From an uncultured archaeon (GTDB lineage Archaea; Aenigmatarchaeota; Aenigmatarchaeia; QMZP01; QMZT01): a stretch of 64,000 nt of DNA. Positions 4,642 through 61,665 of this stretch are shown here, one piece after another (the stretch's first letter is position 1; each line of letters opens with the position of its first letter). The notes beneath the pieces were generated by a model. It made no database searches, was not told where the DNA came from, and was given only the letters and a program-made list of their open reading frames with translations. Made by a program: the position numbers and the translations under genes. Location: positions 3,752-67,751 of the forward strand of contig CAYFWU010000004.1 in NCBI GenBank assembly GCA_964347025.1, given 5' to 3'.

Positions 4642-5196
4642 TTATTTAATGATCCTGCTTACCTTCCTGAATTCGTCCGTCCCTGCCCTGTCCATGACCT
4701 GGAAGATCACGGATTCTGTTGTTGTCAAGAAAATGCCTGCATGGGAAATCCTGCACATTGAGATGCTCCAGTCCATCTGTTTCCGGGAGGAAACCGCGTC
4801 ATAAACCACGTGAACATTGTAGCCTCTTTTCACTCCGTCCAGAGCCGTCTTCAGGACGCACACATGCGCTTCCAGTCCGCAGAGAACGATGTCCTTAACC
4901 TTTAATTTTCTCAGCTCCTTTTCGAACTTTTTATCCCCGAAGCAGGAGAAGTGAAGCTTTTCGAATGGCTTGAAACTGCCCAAGACCTTCGAGACCCCAG
5001 GGACTGTTCGTCCCAGCTTGTCTGGATTCTGCTCTGTCACTATTATGGGGACATTCAGGATACGGAAAGAACCCACAAGTTTCTTTATGTTTTCAGCCAT
5101 TTTGTTGAACTCAAAAATAACGGGCCTGAACTTCTCCTGGACATCTATGACCACCAGACACGTTCTCTTCCTTTCAAGTATCCCCAGTCCTTTCAT
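4642..5196 (-). CDS. isochorismatase-family cysteine hydrolase (nicotinamidase-like)
   Basis: 184 aa. Has CLVVIDVQEKF and VLCGLEAHVCV (catalytic Cys region). Confidence 0.7.
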   Translation of the reverse strand: MKGLGILERKRTCLVVIDVQEKFRPVIFEFNKMAENIKKLVGSFRILNVPIIVTEQNPDKLGRTVPGVSKVLGSFKPFEKLHFSCFGDKKFEKELRKLKVKDIVLCGLEAHVCVLKTALDGVKRGYNVHVVYDAVSSRKQMDWSISMCRISHAGIFLTTTESVIFQVMDRAGTDEFRKVSRIIK

Positions 5197-20919: not shown

Positions 20920-21075
20920 CTATTTTTTGCTTAGATTGAAGTTTTTCCTGTCTCGGAACTCCGCCTGCTTGCCGTCGTTCCACTGTCCCACTGGCCTCAG
21001 ATATCCCACTATTCTGGAATACACTTCGCACTTGGTTCTTCTCTTTTGCAGATCTTTCGATTTTTTTCCGGTCAT
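20920..21075 (-). CDS. nrdD: glycyl-radical C-terminal segment of class III RNR, encoded as a separate 51-codon ORF in frame with nrdD
   Basis: Translates to MTGKKSKDLQKRRTKCEVYSRIVGYLRPVGQWNDGKQAEFRDRKNFNLSKK, carrying the SRxxGY..WNxGKxxE glycyl-radical signature. It is preceded by TAA-GGAGGAATTGAC-ATG. Confidence 0.6.
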   Translation of the reverse strand: MTGKKSKDLQKRRTKCEVYSRIVGYLRPVGQWNDGKQAEFRDRKNFNLSKK

Positions 21076-21087
21076 GTCAATTCCTCC

Positions 21088-23133
21088 TTATTTTGTTTTC
21101 ACGGCTATCTTAACCTTGGGCTTGAATCCTATTTCCTCATCACATACAGGACAGTATTCATGTTCTCCCCGTATGTATCCGTGTTTCGGACATATTGAAA
21201 ACGTCGGGGTGATGGTAAAGTAAGGCAGTGAATAGTGTGCAGCGATCTTCTTTACGAGGGCTTTGGTCGCTGCGGGTGAGGGAGACCTCTCTCCAACAAA
21301 TCCATGTAACACCGTCCCTCCGGTGTATCTCGATTGCAGGGCGTCCTGAAGATCCAATGCCTTGAAGATATCGTCCGTATAATTTACCGGGAGCTGTGTA
21401 GAGTTCGTGTAGTAGGGGGATGCTTCAAACTTTCGGACATTATACTCGTTCGCAACCATTATACCTGGATTCAGCTTCTTGTCAAGAAGGGCGAGCCTGT
21501 ATGACGTCCCCTCCCCGGGAGTTGCCTCAAGATTGTATATGTTCCCGCTCTGCTCCTGATATTCTGAAAGCTTGTCCCTCATGAAATCCATAACCTTCAC
21601 TGCGAACTTCACTCCCTCCTTCGATGTGATATTCGTGTCAATGAAATTCATGAGACTTTCATTCATTCCTATTATACCTATCGTGGAGAAATGGTTCTTC
21701 CAGTAACTTCCCATTGCCTTCTTGGTTGTTCTGAGATAGAACCTTGAATATGGATACAATCCTTTCTCGGTGAAACTCTCTATCACCTTTCTCTTTATTT
21801 CGAGGGAATTCCTTGCTACCCCCATCAGCGAGTCGAGCCTTGCGAAATATTCGTCTTCATTTTTTGACATGTAGCCTATCCTGGGCATGTTCAGCGTGAC
21901 CACTCCTATCGACCCGGTGAGAGGATTCGCTCCGAAGAGTCCGCCTCCCCTTCTTCGCAATTCCCTGTTATCTAACCTTAGTCTACAACACATGCTCCTT
22001 ACATCTTCCGGTTTCATGTCCGAATTGATGAAGTTCGAGAAGTAAGGAATCCCGTACTTCGAAGTCATCTCCCATATTTTTTCGTAGTTGGGATCGTCCC
22101 AGTCGAATTCCTTCGTTATGTTATACGTGGGAATGGGAAAGGTGAAAACCCTCCCCTTTGCATCCCCTTCCACCATTACTTCCGCAAACGCCCGGTTGAA
22201 CATATCCATTTCTTTCTGGTATTCTCCATAGGTGGCGTCCAAGAGTTTACCACCGAGAGCGACAGCCTCACCTTTCATGAATTTCGGTATTTTTAGGTCA
22301 AGCGTGACGTTAGTGAAGGGCGTCTGGAATCCCACACGGGTAGGAACGTTTATGTTGAAAACAAATTCCTGCATTGCCTGCTTAACACCATTGTAATCGA
22401 GATTATCCTTCCTTATGTAAGGAGCAAGTAGTGTATCGAAGCTCGAAAAGGCCTGCGCCCCTGCGGCCTCTCCTTGCAGGGTGTAAAAGAAGTTCACAAG
22501 CTGTCCGAAGGCGACTCGTAAGTGCTGGGCGGGCCTGCACTCTATCTTCCCTCTCACACCCTTGAAACCACTCATTATCAGATCCCTCAGATCCCAGCCT
22601 ACACAATACGCGCCAAATATTCCCAGATCATGGACATGGAAATCTCCCGAGACGTGCGCATCCCTGATTTCCGATGGGTAGATATTGCTCAGCCAGTATT
22701 TCGAGATGATGGTCGAGGATATGTGAAAGTTCAGTCCCTGTAAAGAATACGACATGTTCGCGTTCTCTTTCACCTTCCAGTCCGTTTCATCCAGATATTT
22801 CTCCACCACGCTGACATCAGACAGCATTTTCCTGATATCTCTTATATTCTTGTGCTGTTCCCTGTAGAGAATGTAGGCCTTCGCCGTCTTTGCGTGACCC
22901 TCCTCTATCAAAACCTTTTCAACAATGTCCTGAACATCCTCCACTGTCGGAATCTTATGCCTGAATTTCGAGTTCACAACATTCACAATGCTATCAGCGA
23001 GTTCCTCCGCACGTTTCCTGTCCTTACCGCCGACCGCCTTTGCCGCTTTCCAAACAACATTAATTATCTTCTCTTTCTCAAAATCCACAATCCTTCCGTC
23101 CCTTTTCCTTATCTTTTTCACAACCATAGACAT
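21088..23133 (-). CDS. nrdD: anaerobic (class III) ribonucleoside-triphosphate reductase, large body lacking the glycyl-radical loop
   Basis: 681 aa. Has an N-terminal ATP-cone (VKKRDGRIVDFEKEKI), a conserved core and a C-terminal Cys cluster ICPKHG...YCPVC. It ends 21 residues later at TAA. Confidence 0.85.
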   Translation of the reverse strand: MSMVVKKIRKRDGRIVDFEKEKIINVVWKAAKAVGGKDRKRAEELADSIVNVVNSKFRHKIPTVEDVQDIVEKVLIEEGHAKTAKAYILYREQHKNIRDIRKMLSDVSVVEKYLDETDWKVKENANMSYSLQGLNFHISSTIISKYWLSNIYPSEIRDAHVSGDFHVHDLGIFGAYCVGWDLRDLIMSGFKGVRGKIECRPAQHLRVAFGQLVNFFYTLQGEAAGAQAFSSFDTLLAPYIRKDNLDYNGVKQAMQEFVFNINVPTRVGFQTPFTNVTLDLKIPKFMKGEAVALGGKLLDATYGEYQKEMDMFNRAFAEVMVEGDAKGRVFTFPIPTYNITKEFDWDDPNYEKIWEMTSKYGIPYFSNFINSDMKPEDVRSMCCRLRLDNRELRRRGGGLFGANPLTGSIGVVTLNMPRIGYMSKNEDEYFARLDSLMGVARNSLEIKRKVIESFTEKGLYPYSRFYLRTTKKAMGSYWKNHFSTIGIIGMNESLMNFIDTNITSKEGVKFAVKVMDFMRDKLSEYQEQSGNIYNLEATPGEGTSYRLALLDKKLNPGIMVANEYNVRKFEASPYYTNSTQLPVNYTDDIFKALDLQDALQSRYTGGTVLHGFVGERSPSPAATKALVKKIAAHYSLPYFTITPTFSICPKHGYIRGEHEYCPVCDEEIGFKPKVKIAVKTK

Positions 23134-23136
23134 CCC

Positions 23137-23586
23137 TCACCTTCTTCCTAATCTTCTAAGCTCATTTTCAAAACTTTCCACGTCCTGGAATTCTCTGTAA
23201 ACCGAGGCGAAACGTATGTAGGCAACCTTATCCGTTTTTTTCAGTTTCTTCATCACGAGCTGCCCTATCCTCTTGCTCGGTATCTCAACACCATCATCAC
23301 TCCTCAGTTCGGTTTCTATCTCATCGATCATCTTTTCTATCATCTCATTGGTAATCGGACGTTTTTCACACGCCTTCAAAATCCCGATCTTCAGTTTGTC
23401 CCTGTCGAAACGTTCGCGTTCCCCACTCTTCTTGACAACTATCAAATCCGCTGACTCGATCCTCTCGTACGTTGTGAACCTCTTCCCGCACTTCAGACAC
23501 TCCCTCCTTCTCCGGGAGGATTTCTCATCAGATTCCCTCTTGTCAATTACCTTCAGTTCCTCATTCATGCAGTAGGGACAACGCAT
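23137..23586 (-). CDS. nrdR: transcriptional repressor NrdR (zinc ribbon + ATP-cone)
   Basis: 149 aa. MRCPYC....V.DKR......RRRREC..CGKRFTTYERIE is the NrdR signature. The stop lies 3 nt before the nrdD start. Confidence 0.85.
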   Translation of the reverse strand: MRCPYCMNEELKVIDKRESDEKSSRRRRECLKCGKRFTTYERIESADLIVVKKSGERERFDRDKLKIGILKACEKRPITNEMIEKMIDEIETELRSDDGVEIPSKRIGQLVMKKLKKTDKVAYIRFASVYREFQDVESFENELRRLGRR

Positions 23587-29706: not shown

Positions 29707-29819
29707 GCTGGGGTGGCCGAGTGGTTAAGGCGCAGTAGCCTTTTGAGAAATCAATGGTTGCGCAAGGTTGCTAACCCTGTGGGCTTCGGCCCGCGCAGGT
29801 TCGAATCCTGTCCCCAGCG
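29707..29819 (+). tRNA. tRNA-Ser (anticodon GCU) with a 30-nt insertion in the 5' strand of the anticodon stem
   Basis: GCTGGGG-TG-GCCG-AGTGGTTAA-GGC-G-CAG[TAGCCTTTTGAGAAATCAATGGTTGCGCAA]GG-TTGCTAA-CCCTG-TGGGCTTCGGCCCGC-GCAGG-TTCGAAT-CCTGT-CCCCAGC-G. Class II variable arm. Confidence 0.7.
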
Positions 29820-43908: not shown

Positions 43909-45147
43909 CTACGGTTTAAACCATTCTATTTCATAGTATTCATACTTGGATTTTGGAAGAACGATCTTTTTCAGTTCGTAGTACGTTATTGAGGTTTCAC
44001 GATCTGTTATCGAGAGCAAAAGATTAAGGCCTGTATCCTTCGCCTTCTTCAACATTGAGGCGAGCTCAACCCCTCCAATGTGCTCGTCTTCAGATACCGA
44101 TACTAACACGTATCTTGGTTTATCCTTAGGGGTCTCTCTCACCCACACCCCTTTTCCTTTCTTCCTCCTGTAAGTCATGAAGTCTCCCTGATAATCAATG
44201 TAATCCTTCTTTTTCAATTCAGGGATCCCTAAGATAAACGTTTTCTTCACCCCGTGCGCAACGCGAACCGCTCTCGACCACTCAGAGATCAACAGTTTCT
44301 GCTCTTTGGGAAAAACATGGAGAACGTGCTTGGAGTGAACCCATTCCCCTCCCCTCACAGGAGAAGCTCCGGGGAAGTAAATACGAAAATGAGAACCGAA
44401 TTTAAACCCTGTTTTCACAACGTAACCTTTCAATCTCCAGTCCTCGTATATCTCATACAACTGTTTGGCATACTCCCTTTTTTTAACAACTTCTTTTAAG
44501 ATTCCCTCTGGTTTCATCTTCTTCCCGGTCTCGTTGCTTATAACCTCCAAGCCGAAGTGTTTCGCAAGGAAAATGGTCTCGAAGAAATTCAGTTTCGATT
44601 GCTTCCCTCTTTCCTGCTTGTACACTCCGTATTGCCCTATCCAGTATTTATCAAAAAGTTCTTTCCCAACCTTGTCGTTGTCCAGTATCGAAAACAGGGA
44701 ATCAGGGTACCAGTAGGCCTTTGCCTTAAGTTTCTCAGGTTTTAATTTCTGGGAAGGGTATTTCTTGTACGTTTTCTTCGAATGCTTACCCTGGACGTTT
44801 TCATTGAACCTTCTTACCACGAGACCGCGATCCCTCCAGTCCCTGTAAGCGTTATACCTTATGAACAGTCTCGGTTCTTTACCAATGAAATGTTTGGCCA
44901 GCGAATTGAAGTCGATCTCCTTCCCCCTCTTGTCCAGAACTACCGCATTCCTGAACATTATCAAATACATTGCTTCTTCGGGAAGTAGCGAGATCTTCCC
45001 CCCTTTCTGATTTCCGAAGAAATCATTCGTTAGTTTTCCAACTATCTCTGCCTCTTCCGCCCATATCCCCTTCCTAGGATCGAATTTCAGCTCAAGCATA
45101 GTAATACCTTTACCAACGGAATATATAAAATTAAAAAAACCCTTCAA
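43909..45147 (-). CDS. endA: tRNA-splicing endonuclease, single-chain three-unit form (alphaN-alpha-betaC-like)
   Basis: 412 aa (alternative ATG at 45099). Residues ~17-115 form an N-domain-like unit ending in YRDWRDRGLVV. Residues ~150-330 form a full catalytic unit (YEDWRLKGYVVKTGFKFGSHFRIY...HSKH...AHGVKK, the Tyr/His/Lys triad). Residues ~350-412 form a C-domain-only unit (YVLVSVSED...LLLSITDRETSITYYELK). Confidence 0.75.
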   Translation of the reverse strand: MKGFFNFIYSVGKGITMLELKFDPRKGIWAEEAEIVGKLTNDFFGNQKGGKISLLPEEAMYLIMFRNAVVLDKRGKEIDFNSLAKHFIGKEPRLFIRYNAYRDWRDRGLVVRRFNENVQGKHSKKTYKKYPSQKLKPEKLKAKAYWYPDSLFSILDNDKVGKELFDKYWIGQYGVYKQERGKQSKLNFFETIFLAKHFGLEVISNETGKKMKPEGILKEVVKKREYAKQLYEIYEDWRLKGYVVKTGFKFGSHFRIYFPGASPVRGGEWVHSKHVLHVFPKEQKLLISEWSRAVRVAHGVKKTFILGIPELKKKDYIDYQGDFMTYRRKKGKGVWVRETPKDKPRYVLVSVSEDEHIGGVELASMLKKAKDTGLNLLLSITDRETSITYYELKKIVLPKSKYEYYEIEWFKP

Positions 45148-48798: not shown

Positions 48799-50787
48799 TT
48801 AAACCTTTTGCACGTAACCCGGATTCGGCTCGAAAAGAAGGCCTTCTCTCTTTAGTTTCTCTATTATATCATCAACCTCCTCCACCCCTTCTTTCCTAGC
48901 GAGTTTCTGGATCTCGGAGATAGAAATCTCCTTGGTCTTCTCAGACAGGTCGTTTATTATGTCCATTACCATCCGGATTCTCGACCTCTCGCTGGAGCTC
49001 ACCGATGCCCCTTCCGCTCTGTCTATGTCTATCTGACCAGTTTCTGTATCGAATCCCAGCTGTGTAAGTGAGAACCTCATCAACCTGATCGCTCGCTGCG
49101 CGTCCTCCTTCCTTATCTCATTGTTTAACTGTATTCGGGCGGAGGCCTCTGCCAGACGGATGAGCGCCTCGAACTGACGGAGCGTGATAGGGATCGGACC
49201 GGCTCCACCCTCTGCTCGTTTTCTCATGTTTATGTAGAACCTTCTCATAATCTTCCCCGCCTCAGGCGTTAGGGTTGGCTCGCAATTCTGTTTGGTGTAA
49301 GCTATGTACTTCCTTATCAGTTCCTGATTTATCTTTGGTTTTGACCCTTCGAAATCTTCTTCCCTTGTCTTCAGAACGTGATCAACTATTTTCTTGTCCA
49401 TCTCCGCCTGGGGGACGTCCCTCAGAGCGAACTTCAAATCAAACCTCGTGAGCAGGGTATCGGGGATGGTTATCTGCTTCGCTATTGGCATGTAAGGATC
49501 GAACCTTGAAAACTTCGGGTTACCTCCTGCGAGAACAGAGGTCTGAGCAGGCAAGGTCGCAACGATAGAGGCCTTTGCGATAGAAATACTCCCCTGCTCG
49601 AGCGCCTCGTGCATTGCTATCTGATCGTCCGATGTCATCTTCTCAAACTCGTCTATTGCGAGCAACCCCTTGTTCGTTAACACCAACGCTCCTGCTTCCA
49701 GAACCCATCCTCCCATGAACTGCTCATCCTTCGTAACGGTTGCCGTCAATCCTGCTCCTGTCACTCCCTTCCCGCTCACGTACTTCCCTCTAGGAACGAT
49801 CTGCGGAACGAGTTTCATGAGCTGGGATTTCCCCGAAGAGGGATCCCCTATCAATAGTATGTGTACATCTCCTCGGAAGTGCGTCCCGTCCTTCAACGTC
49901 CTATGAACGCCTCCGAACAACTGGAGGATTATGGATTCCTTTATTTCCTTCATCCCGTAGAGCGATGGAGCGAGGGAATCAACAAGTTTATCATAAATTA
50001 ACGGATCTTTCGTCATCTTTTTTATCTCCTTCTCGTCCTCTTTGGTTATTTCCAGGTGTTGCAAACCTATCTCCACAGGTTCAACAAAATTTGAGTCAAG
50101 ATAAAAATCCAGTTTGACTGAAAAATATTTTCCTTTTGGGATCTCCCTCAGAATTCCCGTGATCTTTATCCTGTTCCCTGGATCCGTTAATCTCCTTCCT
50201 TCAGGCGAAACCAGATCCTCTGTAAGCAGGATGTTCAGCTGGGAAGGTCTCTCTCCCTCTGTCAGTTCGAACGGTTCATCTATCGTTATCCACCTTGTAT
50301 CAATCATTTTCCTGTCAACCTGCTTCAGTCCCTGCTTATTCCCGCAATTCGTACACTGCATTGGCTTAAAAATAACATTGGTTTTCCTTGGCTGCACTAT
50401 CTTCTCGTTGCAATCAGGACATTCCCATATGGTTTCTATAATTTCCGGGCGTATCTCACTGGCCCTCCTTACAACCCCTTCCACACAGCTGAATTTTCCG
50501 ATATGCCTCGATCTCAGATCCCTTATGTTGGTCAGGTCAATCCCCTTAACCTTCAGTTTCACGGGATTCGGGAGCTCGATCTGATCCAACGACTCATACG
50601 CTATGCCAAAAAACCTTTCAGGGTCCTTCAAGAGAAGATCGGACAGATCAGGATCATAAAGTTTTGAGAATTCAATCACCAAGGGTCTCCCCTCATTGGA
50701 GGCCTTCATGAGCTCTTTCTTATACACCTTCTCCAGGAATTCATTGAATTTCGCCACCAACTCCTCATGCTTATGCTTTTTCGCCAT
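48799..50787 (-). CDS. mcm: MCM replicative helicase
   Basis: 662 aa. Has a zinc motif (CPDC...CTNC), Walker A GDPSSGKSQ, Walker B LLAIDEFEKM, an arginine-finger region SRFDL and a C-terminal wHTH. Confidence 0.9.
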   Translation of the reverse strand: MAKKHKHEELVAKFNEFLEKVYKKELMKASNEGRPLVIEFSKLYDPDLSDLLLKDPERFFGIAYESLDQIELPNPVKLKVKGIDLTNIRDLRSRHIGKFSCVEGVVRRASEIRPEIIETIWECPDCNEKIVQPRKTNVIFKPMQCTNCGNKQGLKQVDRKMIDTRWITIDEPFELTEGERPSQLNILLTEDLVSPEGRRLTDPGNRIKITGILREIPKGKYFSVKLDFYLDSNFVEPVEIGLQHLEITKEDEKEIKKMTKDPLIYDKLVDSLAPSLYGMKEIKESIILQLFGGVHRTLKDGTHFRGDVHILLIGDPSSGKSQLMKLVPQIVPRGKYVSGKGVTGAGLTATVTKDEQFMGGWVLEAGALVLTNKGLLAIDEFEKMTSDDQIAMHEALEQGSISIAKASIVATLPAQTSVLAGGNPKFSRFDPYMPIAKQITIPDTLLTRFDLKFALRDVPQAEMDKKIVDHVLKTREEDFEGSKPKINQELIRKYIAYTKQNCEPTLTPEAGKIMRRFYINMRKRAEGGAGPIPITLRQFEALIRLAEASARIQLNNEIRKEDAQRAIRLMRFSLTQLGFDTETGQIDIDRAEGASVSSSERSRIRMVMDIINDLSEKTKEISISEIQKLARKEGVEEVDDIIEKLKREGLLFEPNPGYVQKV

Positions 50788-51683: not shown

Positions 51684-51819
51684 TGGGCCGGGCAGGATTC
51701 CCAACGACCTTTTGGGTGGCGAGCCTTTTTTGACTCGCGGAAGCGTCTGGAAAAGGTTCGCATTGAACCTGCGACCTTCGCGTTGTAAGCGCGACGTCAT
51801 ACCACTAGACCACCGGCCC
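51684..51819 (-). tRNA. tRNA-Val (anticodon UAC) with a 64-nt insertion in the T-loop
   Basis: Minus strand: GGGCCGG-TG-GTCT-AGTGGTA-TGAC-G-TCGCG-CTTACAA-CGCGA-AGGTC-GCAGG-TTCAA[..64 nt..]AT-CCTGC-CCGGCCC-A. The junction is ambiguous by 2 nt. Confidence 0.75.
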
Positions 51820-58782: not shown

Positions 58783-58930
58783 TGCGCCGACCGGGACATT
58801 CAGACCGTTTTCCGTTGACGCTTTTCTGAAAAGGGTCATTTGAACCCGGGTTACAGGCTTGGGAAGCCCGTGTCCTAGTGCCCGCAAGTCCTTCTTGCGA
58901 AGTGAAGGCGCCAGGCTAGACTATCGGCGC
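58783..58930 (-). tRNA. tRNA-Gly (anticodon CCC) with two insertions (33 nt in D-loop, 42 nt in T-loop)
   Basis: Minus strand: GCGCCGA-TA-GTCT-AGCCTGG[33]TA-GGAC-A-CGGGC-TTCCCAA-GCCTG-TAAC-CCGGG-TTCAAAT[42]CCCGG-TCGGCGC-A. The exons total 73 nt. Confidence 0.75.
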
Positions 58931-58995: not shown

Positions 58996-60606
58996 ATGTT
59001 GAAAAAATATCTTGTTTTCGGTCTCTCTCTAACTCTTGTTATTTTTCTTTCCGGTTGTTTGGAAGGTCTAACCCCCGAAGCCCTGGCTTATGCGAATCCT
59101 CTCGTGGAGCAGTTTATGGAGCAATATCCAAATGCCCAGATCCAGATTACACATTTCACTGCTCTCCAGAGTATAAGGCTGGTTGAAAACATAAGCATAG
59201 ATTGCGGTAAGAATGTGACGCCCAAGGACTTCTACAGGATCACGATAGATGATCCTGACAGCGGATTGAACGTAATTGCCTGGATAGACTGGGAAAACAA
59301 AAGACTGGAGTGCGCTGTTAAATACGGAATGGGAGAGGAAAAAACAATCTCGAAACCCGAAACACCTATCCAGACCTGTACATCACATGCGGAAGCGAAA
59401 TGTTACGGAGATCACGTATACTGGTTTGATTCCTGCGGCCACAAACAGGAAAAGAAGGAGTATTGCCAACAGGGATGTGAACTCGGCTTCTGCAAGGAAA
59501 AAAGCCATTGTGAAAGGGAGGGCGGATACTGCATTTCAAAAACCGATGTGGCAGGTTGTAAGGAAGATTATGTATTGAAGGAAGAGATCGACTGCCTCGA
59601 AGGTAAGGTATGCTGTCTTCCCAAGTGCGAATCACACGCAGAACTTAAATGTTACGAAGGACATGTATTCTGGTATAATTCCTGCGGTCACAGGCAGGAG
59701 AAGAAAGAATACTGCTACCATGGATGCTTTGAAGGGAAATGCAAGGCCGCTCCCGAGGCTTTCTGTGGAACATCAACAGAAGGTCCCTGCGAAACAGATG
59801 ACAACTGCACAACCGGGGGATGTTCCAGTCAGGTCTGCCAGAGTGTAAACGAAGATCCGGTTTCAACAACGTGTATATATAAGGATTGCTACAATGCTGC
59901 CGAGTATGACATGGTTTGCAAATGCGTCGAGGGCGAATGCAGGTGGAAGAAGGAGTGCGAATCCCACCACACGTACAAATGCTATGAGGGGCATGTTTAC
60001 TGGTACGACTCCTGCGGAAACAAAGAGGAGAAGAAATATGCCTGCGAACACGGATGTGAGAACAGGCAATGTAAAGGATATTGCCAGTCACACCACGAAT
60101 TTAAATGCTATGAAGGTCATGTGTACTGGTACAATTCATGCGGTAACAAGGAAGACAAGAAACAGGCATGCGAATACGGGTGTTTTGAAGGAGCGTGCAT
60201 AGAAGGGTGTAGAGACGAAGAACATGAATGTTACTTCGGTGAGAAGCCTTGCTGTGAAGGACTGGTCGAGGTTCCTTTTGGTGGCTACGATCCTAATATC
60301 AGCACATGTATTGCAGCGACCTGCGGATGGGTATGCAGGCCATGTGGAAATGGAGTATGTGATGAAAACGAGGATGGATGCACGTGCCCAGAAGATTGCG
60401 GCGATGTATGCATAGACTCCGATGAAGGAAAGAACTACCATGATTGGGGGACTGTAACAAAAGGTTCAACCTCTGCCTCAGATCACTGCAACCAGGACGG
60501 AACGCTCACCGAGAAGTACTGCGAGAACAATGAGATAAAGGCAGAGACAGTGAACTGTTCAGAAGGATACGAATGTCTGGAAGGGGAATGCATAGAGAAT
60601 ATTTAA
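58996..60606 (+). CDS. secreted Cys-rich repeat lipoprotein (four ~40-aa CxSHxExKCYEGHVYWYxSCGxK modules plus other Cys-cluster domains)
   Basis: 536 aa. Has a signal peptide ending in the lipobox-like LSGC. Repeats lie at roughly nt 59377-59496, 59626-59745, 59956-60075 and 60082-60198. The central segment is CGTSTEGPCETDDNCTTGGCSSQVCQ.... Confidence 0.6.
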   Translation: MLKKYLVFGLSLTLVIFLSGCLEGLTPEALAYANPLVEQFMEQYPNAQIQITHFTALQSIRLVENISIDCGKNVTPKDFYRITIDDPDSGLNVIAWIDWENKRLECAVKYGMGEEKTISKPETPIQTCTSHAEAKCYGDHVYWFDSCGHKQEKKEYCQQGCELGFCKEKSHCEREGGYCISKTDVAGCKEDYVLKEEIDCLEGKVCCLPKCESHAELKCYEGHVFWYNSCGHRQEKKEYCYHGCFEGKCKAAPEAFCGTSTEGPCETDDNCTTGGCSSQVCQSVNEDPVSTTCIYKDCYNAAEYDMVCKCVEGECRWKKECESHHTYKCYEGHVYWYDSCGNKEEKKYACEHGCENRQCKGYCQSHHEFKCYEGHVYWYNSCGNKEDKKQACEYGCFEGACIEGCRDEEHECYFGEKPCCEGLVEVPFGGYDPNISTCIAATCGWVCRPCGNGVCDENEDGCTCPEDCGDVCIDSDEGKNYHDWGTVTKGSTSASDHCNQDGTLTEKYCENNEIKAETVNCSEGYECLEGECIENI

Positions 60607-61326
60607 TTACCCCACCTCTTTCAATATTTTTTCACCGTGATGGATCGCTTTCTTCAGAAGCCACTCATCATAACTTTCCTTGTGGATCTTTATGGGTTCT
60701 TTCAGGGTCTTCCAGTGCCATTTAAGTTTGACATTTTTCGACCGGATGTTAAAACCAACCTTCCCCTTAGGATTTTCGAAATCCTTAACTTCAAAGAAAT
60801 TCTTGTTGTTTTTTATTTGATAATTATCCCACCATATCCTTAGGTGCCCTCTTTTCAGACCTTTCTTAACGAACCTGTCAATCCACTTCTTTTGATGTGT
60901 GTCGTAGTCTCCCACCAGATGCAGACGCTCCAGTCTTTCTCCCTTCTTCAGTTTCTTTTCTCTGCACTTGTTCAGAATCCAGTCTTCAAAGCTCTCCTCG
61001 TGCATCTTTATAGGCTTTCTGGGGGTCTTCCAGTGCCATTTCAGTTTTAGTTTTTTCGAACGGATATCAAGACCCACCTTTCCTCCCGGATTTTCAAAAT
61101 CCTTTACCTCTATGAAATTCTTGTCATTCAGAACTTCGCGATTCTCTTTCCAGATCCAGAAATGCCCTCTCTTTAAACCCCTCTTAACGAATCTCTCGAT
61201 CCAGGTTTTCTTGTCAGGATCAATCTTTAATTTCCATTTGCCTTTATTTCGTCTCTCCAGAACAGATATCGCTCTTTCCAGTCTTTTCTCAGTCGATTCA
61301 ATAGGATCCTTTCTTTTTCGAGCCAT
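60607..61326 (-). CDS. hypothetical basic protein made of two tandem ~100-aa repeats
   Basis: 239 aa. Unit 1 is KKTWIERFVKRGLKRGHFWIWKENREV...LKLKWHWKTPRKPIKMHEESFEDWILNK. Unit 2 is QKKWIDRFVKKGLKRGHLRIWWDNYQI...VKLKWHWKTLKEPIKIHKESYDEWLLKK. Confidence 0.45.
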   Translation of the reverse strand: MARKRKDPIESTEKRLERAISVLERRNKGKWKLKIDPDKKTWIERFVKRGLKRGHFWIWKENREVLNDKNFIEVKDFENPGGKVGLDIRSKKLKLKWHWKTPRKPIKMHEESFEDWILNKCREKKLKKGERLERLHLVGDYDTHQKKWIDRFVKKGLKRGHLRIWWDNYQIKNNKNFFEVKDFENPKGKVGFNIRSKNVKLKWHWKTLKEPIKIHKESYDEWLLKKAIHHGEKILKEVG

Positions 61327-61415: not shown

Positions 61416-61665
61416 CGCTGGGAGCAGGAAATTCGAGCGAAGCAGGTTTCACCTGCTTCATACGCCATTCGAACCTGCACGGGCAAAAAGCCCACCGGAT
61501 CTCTTGACATAGCTCGTCCGAGGACTTGCTGATGTAAGATACTGGTTTTGGTTGATCTTCATCTCCGCCGTATCCGAGTCAAGCCATCAAATCACCGCAA
61601 CGCAAGGTCGCTCATAAGATCCAGTGCTCAAGTCCGGCGCGTTAGCCTGGTTCCGCCATCCCAGC
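61416..61665 (-). tRNA. tRNA-Ser (anticodon UGA) with a 126-nt canonical-position intron and a 38-nt T-loop insertion
   Basis: Minus strand: GCTGGGA-TG-GCGG-AACCAGGCTAA-CGC-G-CCGGA-CTTGAG[126]A-TCCGG-TGGGCTTTTTGCCCGT-GCAGG-TTCGAAT[38]CCTGC-TCCCAGC-G. A TATTTATAAATA box lies about 30 nt upstream. Confidence 0.7.

Follow-up and report, generated by a model that had tools for sequence, protein, structure and literature searches.

A tRNA-Gly(CCC) gene with two predicted bulge-helix-bulge introns, in the D-loop and the T-loop, from an archaeon assigned to the Aenigmarchaeota

Split tRNA genes at non-canonical sites have been characterized in the DPANN archaeon ARMAN-2 (Candidatus Micrarchaeum acidiphilum), where 56% of the tRNA genes are split (PMC3239211), with an intron at position 59/60 in pre-tRNA-Cys and introns at both 53/54 and 59/60 in pre-tRNA-Pro(GGG) (Fujishima 2011, PMC3239211). 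The tRNA splicing endonuclease of this organism, EndA (PDB 4FZ2), is an epsilon2 enzyme made of three units (alphaN-alpha-betaC), with catalytic residues Y236, H251 and K282 and an ASL loop, GTYKVSEH, in which K161 confers cleavage of relaxed motifs (PMC3488258). In vitro, the ARMAN-2 enzyme cleaves an intron with a strict motif at 37/38 as well as one with a relaxed motif at 59/60, and such relaxed motifs form a class that is also counted as bulge-helix-bulge (BHB) type in the literature (PMC3239211). A 2018 survey listed epsilon2 for Micrarchaeum and Mancarchaeum only, and warned that DPANN tRNA sets are incomplete (PMC5829648). Outside DPANN, multiple-intron tRNA genes and transposition of tRNA introns have been described in Thermoproteales (Sugahara 2008 and Fujishima 2010, as cited in passages of PMC4033280 and PMC4090602), and no archaeal tRNA gene has been published with more than three introns (PMC8450103; PMC3239211). 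Here, we analysed a 148-nt interval within a 64-kb stretch of archaeal DNA (the window, by which we mean that whole stretch) and conclude that it is very probably a functional tRNA-Gly(CCC) gene of an Aenigmarchaeota archaeon, interrupted by an endonuclease-type BHB intron in the D-loop and another in the T-loop (Table 1). The main residual doubt centres on whether the relaxed D-loop motif is spliced efficiently.

The closest known system is that of ARMAN-2, with its split tRNAs and epsilon2 enzyme. Both hosts are DPANN archaea with a three-unit EndA of about 395 aa that has the ASL lysine, and both have many non-canonically split tRNA genes in which the 59/60 site recurs, two introns can occupy one gene, and strict and relaxed BHB motifs are mixed. 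The differences are that ARMAN-2 belongs to the Micrarchaeota rather than the Aenigmarchaeota, and that the tRNA considered here is Gly(CCC), with its second intron in the D-loop at 19/20. In addition, cleavage has been measured in vitro for the ARMAN-2 cases and is predicted for the window gene. Thermoproteales are the closest analogue with a different enzyme. According to the passages cited above, they share with our locus and its relatives genes that carry several BHB introns, in the D-loop, the anticodon stem or the T-loop, as well as similar introns across tRNA genes, fast gain and loss among relatives, and a tendency to be missed by default finders. A first-pass annotation of the window, made from the sequence, had pointed to this lineage, but the host is an Aenigmarchaeota archaeon with an epsilon2 enzyme, not a crenarchaeon with an (alpha-beta)2 endonuclease. 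A further difference is that one relative of the window gene needs four introns, against the published three (PMC8450103). Finally, nuclear multi-intron tRNA genes of the red alga Cyanidioschyzon merolae share the combination of D-loop and T-loop BHB introns (PMC3728597), but they belong to a eukaryote with another endonuclease complex and have no evolutionary link to this locus. The kind of gene described here is therefore known; in Aenigmarchaeota it is apparently undescribed, none having been found in the literature searched.

The spliced product and its orthologues

The first finding that carries our reading is that excising 33 and 42 nt from the 148-nt precursor leaves 20 + 39 + 14 = 73 nt, a product that ARAGORN calls as tRNA-Gly(ccc). 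No tRNA is called by ARAGORN when either insert is kept and only the other removed. The first-pass annotation had proposed precisely such a gene, interrupted in both the D-loop and the T-loop with 73 nt of exons and neither intron at 37/38; its minus-strand sequence is exact, and the introns map to 19/20 and 59/60. It had also called the acceptor, anticodon and T stems perfect, which does not hold for the anticodon stem: in the ARAGORN drawing, a single G.U pair is seen here and another in the D stem. The spliced tRNA has the universal tertiary nucleotides (U8, A14, G18G19, A21, U33, U54U55C56, A58 and C61, with the pair G15:C48) and a T-loop reading UUCAAAU. The glycine identity set consists of A73, C2:G71, G3:C70 and C35C36, and all of these elements are present. 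The 3' CCA is not encoded, TCA coming next. TATA-like AT-rich elements lie 24-35 nt upstream of the gene in the window, as well as in the two closer relatives described below (L022 and L023), and may drive its transcription.

Table 1. Coordinates and main features of the tRNA-Gly(CCC) gene, its orthologues, the endonuclease gene and the other split tRNA genes of the window
Feature	Source	Position	Strand	Length	Description
tRNA-Gly(CCC) gene	window	58783..58930	-	148 nt	two introns (19/20, 59/60) included; basis: sequence, in silico splicing and ARAGORN, whole-window scan, orthologue identity
Exon 1	window	58911..58930	-	20 nt	acceptor 5' strand, U8 A9, D-stem 5' strand, D-loop A14-G19
Intron 1	window	58878..58910	-	33 nt	D-loop, between G19 and U20; relaxed BHB
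Exon 2	window	58839..58877	-	39 nt	U20 to A59: D-stem 3' strand, CCC anticodon arm, 4-nt variable loop, T-stem 5' strand, T-loop UUCAAA
Intron 2	window	58797..58838	-	42 nt	T-loop, 59/60; strict hBHBh'
Exon 3	window	58783..58796	-	14 nt	U60, T-stem 3' strand, acceptor 3' strand, discriminator A73
tRNA-Gly(CCC), L010				112 nt	1 intron: 59/60
tRNA-Gly(CCC), L022	GCA_011772255.1, WVZW01000019.1	6713-6847		135 nt	2 introns: 29/30, 59/60
tRNA-Gly(CCC), L023	GCA_964613955.1, CAZTJN010000003.1	74-358		285 nt	4 introns: 15/16 (66 nt), 19/20 (32 nt), 37/38 (48 nt), 59/60 (66 nt)
EndA, three-unit epsilon2-type tRNA splicing endonuclease	window	43909..45099	-	396 aa	from ATG; 412 aa from upstream TTG at 45147; Pfam PF01974
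tRNA-Ser(UGA)	window	61416-61665	-	250 nt	126-nt intron at 37/38 (61501-61626), 38-nt strict hBHBh' intron at 59/60 (61430-61467); spliced 86-mer called tRNA-Ser(tga); missed by ARAGORN and Rfam
tRNA-Val(UAC)	window	51684-51819	-		64-nt T-loop intron (51698-51761); relaxed BHB, central helix UUCA/UGGG
tRNA-Ser(GCU)	window	29707-29819	+		30-nt anticodon-stem intron at 29/30 (29736-29765); central helix GCGC/GCGC, inner helix AGCC/GGUU

The locus had been expected to escape default tRNA finders, and it does. It is unreported by ARAGORN on the window, by Rfam at the gathering score and by a sensitive local Rfam scan, and ARAGORN finds no tRNA in the 148-mer even in intron mode. This silence is the one observation that speaks for a chance resemblance, or for a degraded tRNA fragment with no function, a reading that we consider hardly credible at all. 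In a test of chance, BHB-like candidates were collected on both strands of the whole window, one strict and one relaxed candidate were combined, and each doubly spliced product was submitted to ARAGORN: only the tRNA-Gly(CCC) locus was recovered, against 0, 1, 0 and 0 calls in four dinucleotide-shuffled windows, the single call being an unassignable 'tRNA-???'. The 148-mer precursor folds better than 200 of 200 shuffles (z = -3.4), and no alternative folding that explains the 148 nt better was found, an outcome that the first-pass annotation had raised as a possible challenge. Above all, chance is already refuted by comparative data, the 73-mer being identical in three other genomes with conserved synteny. 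By comparison, a pipeline combining single-intron BHB prediction with ARAGORN at strict thresholds had the 29.7-kb tRNA, wrongly parsed, as its only hit in the window; relaxed motifs thus defeat simple scanners. Around the locus, Rfam shows no credible known RNA inside the introns.

The orthologues were found in two ways. A first comparative scan, in which the middle exon was searched for in a single genome of each GTDB species, returned two groups: intronless 71-nt genes in ANME-1-like metagenome-assembled genomes (MAGs), with a different acceptor stem, and three DPANN genes with an intron at 59/60, two from Aenigmarchaeota (L007 and L010) and one from Micrarchaeota (L009). The closer relatives L022 and L023 were reached with IorA as an anchor, followed by BLAST of the exons; a regular expression for an intact Gly(CCC) anticodon arm had missed both because their anticodon arms are themselves interrupted. 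For each gene, an exhaustive exon/intron solver then gave the minimum number of excisions that yields the 73-mer of the window (Table 1). The spliced tRNA is identical at 73 of 73 positions in the window, L010, L022 and L023, and differs at two positions from L009 and at four from L007. At each of the nine junctions in the four genes with the identical product, a central helix of 4/4 bp is in register with the cuts that this 73-mer requires, while the chance expectation of a 4-bp helix at a fixed register is about 2%. The genes are also orthologous by position, with IorA/PFOR neighbours. In L022, the order UbiA ... ZIP-TspO-Pyr_excise-Rce1-IorA, with the tRNA in between, is common to the window, and in L007 and L010 the tRNA adjoins IorA/PFOR in the same order as in the window. 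The tRNA is identical despite divergence of the flanks, the IorA proteins being 81-86% identical and the PFOR DNA of L007 and L010 about 65%. Metagenomes were also scanned twice for exon patterns, once with a mandatory D-loop insert and once with a mandatory T-loop insert, and neither scan found anything; homologues (57-75% identity) of the 106-aa protein adjacent to the gene lie in unrelated neighbourhoods with no tRNA-Gly(CCC).

The introns of these orthologues are far less stable than the exons. L022 has no D-loop intron and instead carries a 20-nt near-strict BHB intron at 29/30, which shows a rapid turnover of introns on identical exons. L023 requires at least four excisions and would thus exceed the published maximum. 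In this gene, the central helix at 19/20 has 3/4 bp and reaches 4/4 bp only once the 15/16 intron has been removed, implying ordered splicing; likewise, some introns of C. merolae must go before another motif can form (PMC3728597). This is not so for the window gene, where both central helices are already complete in the unspliced transcript and no splicing order is therefore required.

The two junctions and the splicing endonuclease

A BHB-like structure, which had been proposed as the feature to look for at each junction, is present at both, strict in the T-loop and relaxed in the D-loop. The strict scanner demanded a 4-bp central helix, 3-nt bulges cut after the second base, and inner and outer helices, and the T-loop insert is its top-ranked candidate in the 148-nt interval. 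The central helix, UUCA (58841-58844) with UGAA (58799-58802), has 4/4 bp in the unspliced context. It is flanked by the 5-bp T stem as outer helix and a 4-bp inner helix (GACC/GGUC), so that both bulges (AA^U and UG^U, each cut two nt in) are closed by flanking helices, as in the hBHBh' form. This conformer (-16.6 kcal/mol) lies only 0.3 above the local minimum free energy of -16.9 kcal/mol. The initial parse had left the junctions ambiguous by a few nt; that is not the case in the D-loop, and in the T-loop a shift of the intron by 1 nt to the left (58797-58838; index 93-134 of the pre-tRNA) leaves the product unchanged and puts the BHB in perfect register. The 59/60 site and its motif are also found in L007, L009, L010, L022 and L023. 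Across seven genes, 94.5% of the cells of the T-loop BHB core are paired, against 22-58% in slid registers, and five pairs have changed on both sides, with a covariation score that 0/500 shuffles reached, figures to be read with the caveat that the cores were trimmed by the BHB register, which favours the structure. The T-loop intron of the window is identical to that of L022 at 40 of 42 positions, and its similarity to that of L010 outside the BHB is not significant.

In the D-loop, the central helix GCCU (58913-58916) with GGGC (58880-58883) has 4/4 bp in the exact cutting register in the unspliced context, the bulges are GG^C on the 5' side and AC^U on the 3' side, and the intron holds an internal hairpin, CUUC-GCAA-GAAG. 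The position of this intron is fixed by comparison. The genes of L007, L009, L010 and L022, in which exon 1 is contiguous with exon 2, have the uninterrupted D-loop AGCCUGGUA, which the 33-nt excision in the window gene reproduces exactly. This bears on the idea that the insert in the D region is spliced elsewhere, to give a different exon-intron structure or even another tRNA. A 15-nt BHB candidate at 58888-58902, index 29-43 of the 148 nt, removed together with the T-loop intron, gives a 72-nt product that ARAGORN accepts as tRNA-Gly(ccc), and another combination gives a 78-nt 'tRNA-Arg(tcg)'. However, these products match no orthologue, whereas the 33-nt excision gives the identical 73-mer, and every base of exon 1, starting with position 1, is conserved in the relatives, which makes any such alternative structure very improbable. 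A further BHB candidate (central helix UAGU/ACUA, index 14-57 of the 148 nt) was also tried and rejected; it would delete the D arm.

The corresponding 19/20 intron of L023 is homologous to the D-loop intron of the window, with 24 identical columns of about 33 (z = 4.6, 0/5000 shuffles as good); in the central helix, U.G in one is U-A in the other, and the hairpin is kept in both as CUUC-GNRA-GAAG. The two introns have diverged by about 27% while the exons are unchanged at 73/73 positions. Purifying selection has therefore acted on the gene in its interrupted state, a strong argument against a pseudogene.

The window also encodes a candidate enzyme. The 106-aa protein adjacent to the tRNA gene and the endonuclease each have a 100% identical counterpart at NCBI in a MAG labelled 'Candidatus Aenigmarchaeota archaeon', where the latter is named tRNA-intron lyase. 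On this evidence, the host is a DPANN archaeon of the Aenigmarchaeota with an epsilon2-type endonuclease; the window is also matched by a Logan assembly of run ERR2564004. The EndA gene lies 14 kb from tRNA-Gly(CCC) and its product, of about 400 aa, has the tRNA-intron endonuclease catalytic domain (PF01974) mid-protein. Residues 28-412 align with residues 14-387 of 4fz2_A over the full length (E = 3.1e-104). The catalytic Tyr, His and Lys are kept as Y257/H271/K302 in the 412-aa numbering (Y241/H255/K286 in the 396-aa numbering), and the ASL loop reads GVYK-QER compared with GTYKVSEH, the lysine being kept and one residue deleted. A homologue search suggests that this is no isolated case. The 120 top hits are all 342-409 aa, nearly all are full-length, and those with a named source are with few exceptions Aenigmarchaeota, so that the epsilon2 architecture seems to be the rule across the phylum.

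Taken together, these features suggest the following pathway. Transcription of the gene would give a precursor of at least 148 nt, in which an EndA epsilon2 homodimer would recognise each junction and cut two nt into each bulge, the window EndA presumably excising both introns. The T-loop junction, whose hBHBh' motif is strict and has the T stem as its base, should be cleavable by any archaeal endonuclease type, whereas the relaxed motif beside the D stem would need the broad specificity given by the ASL lysine and is, we infer, an adequate substrate for it. An RtcB-type RNA ligase, the kind of enzyme that ligates archaeal tRNA exons, would then join the three exons into the 73-nt tRNA. The ends would be trimmed (the window encodes a protein subunit of RNase P) and, because the gene does not encode it, CCA would be added post-transcriptionally.

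Several observations weigh against a fully functional gene, most of them at the D-loop junction, which does not have the strict hBHBh' form. Its inner helix is only 2 bp long, and an A14.A55 mismatch breaks the outer helix and turns what should be the 3' bulge into a 1x4 internal loop. A competing local fold, at -18.6 kcal/mol, beats the BHB conformer (-11.4 kcal/mol) by about 7 kcal/mol. Even with the cloverleaf enforced, the insert favours a bulge-helix-loop-like arrangement, 3 kcal/mol above the global minimum free energy. It is these weak flanks and the competing fold that make the motif a relaxed one. Moreover, the D-loop intron is missing from L022, the closest syntenic relative, and from L007, L009 and L010, and its conservation is thus limited to one other genome. 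Two further points concern the wider pathway: no oligo-T terminator directly follows the gene in the sequence, and no RtcB-type RNA ligase gene was seen among the Pfam-annotated open reading frames (ORFs) of the window.

It could be argued on these grounds that the gene is partly disabled, with a genuine and ancestral T-loop intron and a D-loop insert that is removed poorly or not at all, the locus being a pseudogene or a weakly expressed copy while GGG is read by another tRNA-Gly. The thermodynamically disfavoured D-loop motif and its absence from four relatives are what such a gene might show, and a related genome (L019) has a tRNA-Gly(UCC) gene free of introns that shares its acceptor and T arm with tRNA-Gly(CCC) and whose U34 might cover GGG. 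Nevertheless, we regard this as unlikely. The D-loop central helix and both cut sites are in exact register at an unambiguous junction, and in a dead gene one would not expect the exons to stay identical to those of L023 while the homologous 19/20 introns drifted apart by about a quarter. The host endonuclease is of a type shown in the literature to cleave relaxed motifs, with the critical lysine kept, and other tRNA genes in the window have relaxed junctions too, tRNA-Ser(GCU) lacking an outer helix and tRNA-Val(UAC) having a poor inner helix. An intact tRNA-Gly(CCC) elsewhere, which the first-pass annotation had given as a sign that this locus is a pseudogene, is absent from the 64-kb window, to which that answer applies. 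A functional gene with two introns is consequently the reading that we retain.

Other split tRNA genes, intron families and neighbouring genes

Disruption of tRNA genes in the window is not limited to tRNA-Gly(CCC), since four of its five tRNA genes are split by BHB-type introns, tRNA-Pro(GGG) being intact. A T7 run follows the tRNA-Ser(UGA) gene. The 126-nt intron of the latter has no credible Rfam match and folds no better than shuffles (z = -0.7), and inspection of the introns by eye showed no C/D-box pattern. For tRNA-Val(UAC), of which Rfam reports only the 5' 56 nt, the exact position of the T-loop junction is uncertain by a few nt, and the orthologue in L022 (14985-15060) is intact. tRNA-Ser(GCU) is scored by Rfam and missed by ARAGORN. 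In L023, a candidate tRNA-Val(UAC) at 20984-21294 has at least three inserts (in the D-loop, after the anticodon loop and in the T-loop) and is followed by an assembly gap, a run of N at about 21357-21455.

Some of these introns resemble introns of other tRNA genes. The T-loop intron of tRNA-Val(UAC) in the window is similar to two introns of the tRNA-Gly gene of L023, the one in the T-loop (279-344; z = 9.0) and the one at 15/16 (89-154; z = 5.7), with 0/5000 shuffles as good in either case. The T-loop intron of tRNA-Ser(UGA) is similar to that of tRNA-Gly in L007 (about 4948-4986; z = 4.2, 2/5000 shuffles as good). We claim no relation between the T-loop introns of tRNA-Gly and tRNA-Val within the window, their similarity being marginal (32/2000 shuffles as good). 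Such intron families, recurring across tRNA genes and positions, look like the product of an intron transposition of the kind described in Thermoproteales. We are slightly inclined to go further and to see in Aenigmarchaeota an undescribed hotspot of tRNA-gene disruption, with a phylum-wide epsilon2 enzyme and mobile families of short introns homing especially to 59/60, in which the same 73-mer can be encoded with 1, 2, 2 or 4 introns and the D-loop intron of the window would be a snapshot of turnover.

These findings matter for several reasons. First, standard annotation misses tRNA-Gly(CCC), and misses or detects only in part the three other split tRNA genes in 64 kb; counts of DPANN tRNA genes are accordingly too low, and a tRNA that seems to be missing could be mistaken for a sign of symbiont dependence, a danger that has been warned of (PMC5829648). 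Second, a broad-specificity epsilon2 enzyme together with heavy and fast-changing intron loads would now be found in a second DPANN phylum, which supports co-evolution of endonuclease specificity and tRNA disruption. Third, the series of orthologues, with identical exons and varying numbers of introns, is a natural experiment on intron gain, loss and transposition, and the relaxed D-loop motif offers a concrete substrate for probing the cleavage range of epsilon2.

The remaining genes of the window are for the most part unexceptional. About 60 ORFs were annotated with Pfam and proved to be the usual housekeeping genes of an archaeon, among them those for MCM, RNase P Pop5, Trm5/TYW2, PFOR/IOR and the anaerobic ribonucleotide reductase. 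Upstream of tRNA-Gly, at 58996-60606 on the plus strand, is a gene for a 536-aa protein with a lipoprotein-like N-terminus, no Pfam match and many repeats of a Cys-rich unit, C-Y-E/G-G-H-V-Y/F-W-Y/F-x-S-C-G-x-K/R; it is followed on the minus strand (60607-61326) by one for a 239-aa protein, also with no Pfam match, which is made of a duplicated unit of about 110 aa. The MCM protein of L022 (15682-19248) has 1188 aa, with an intein and LAGLIDADG domains, while that of the window (48799-50787) has 662 aa and is without the intein. Lastly, a gene at 23137-23586 on the minus strand, adjoining that of the anaerobic ribonucleotide reductase, encodes an NrdR-like repressor with a zinc ribbon and an ATP-cone, NrdR being a mostly bacterial regulator.

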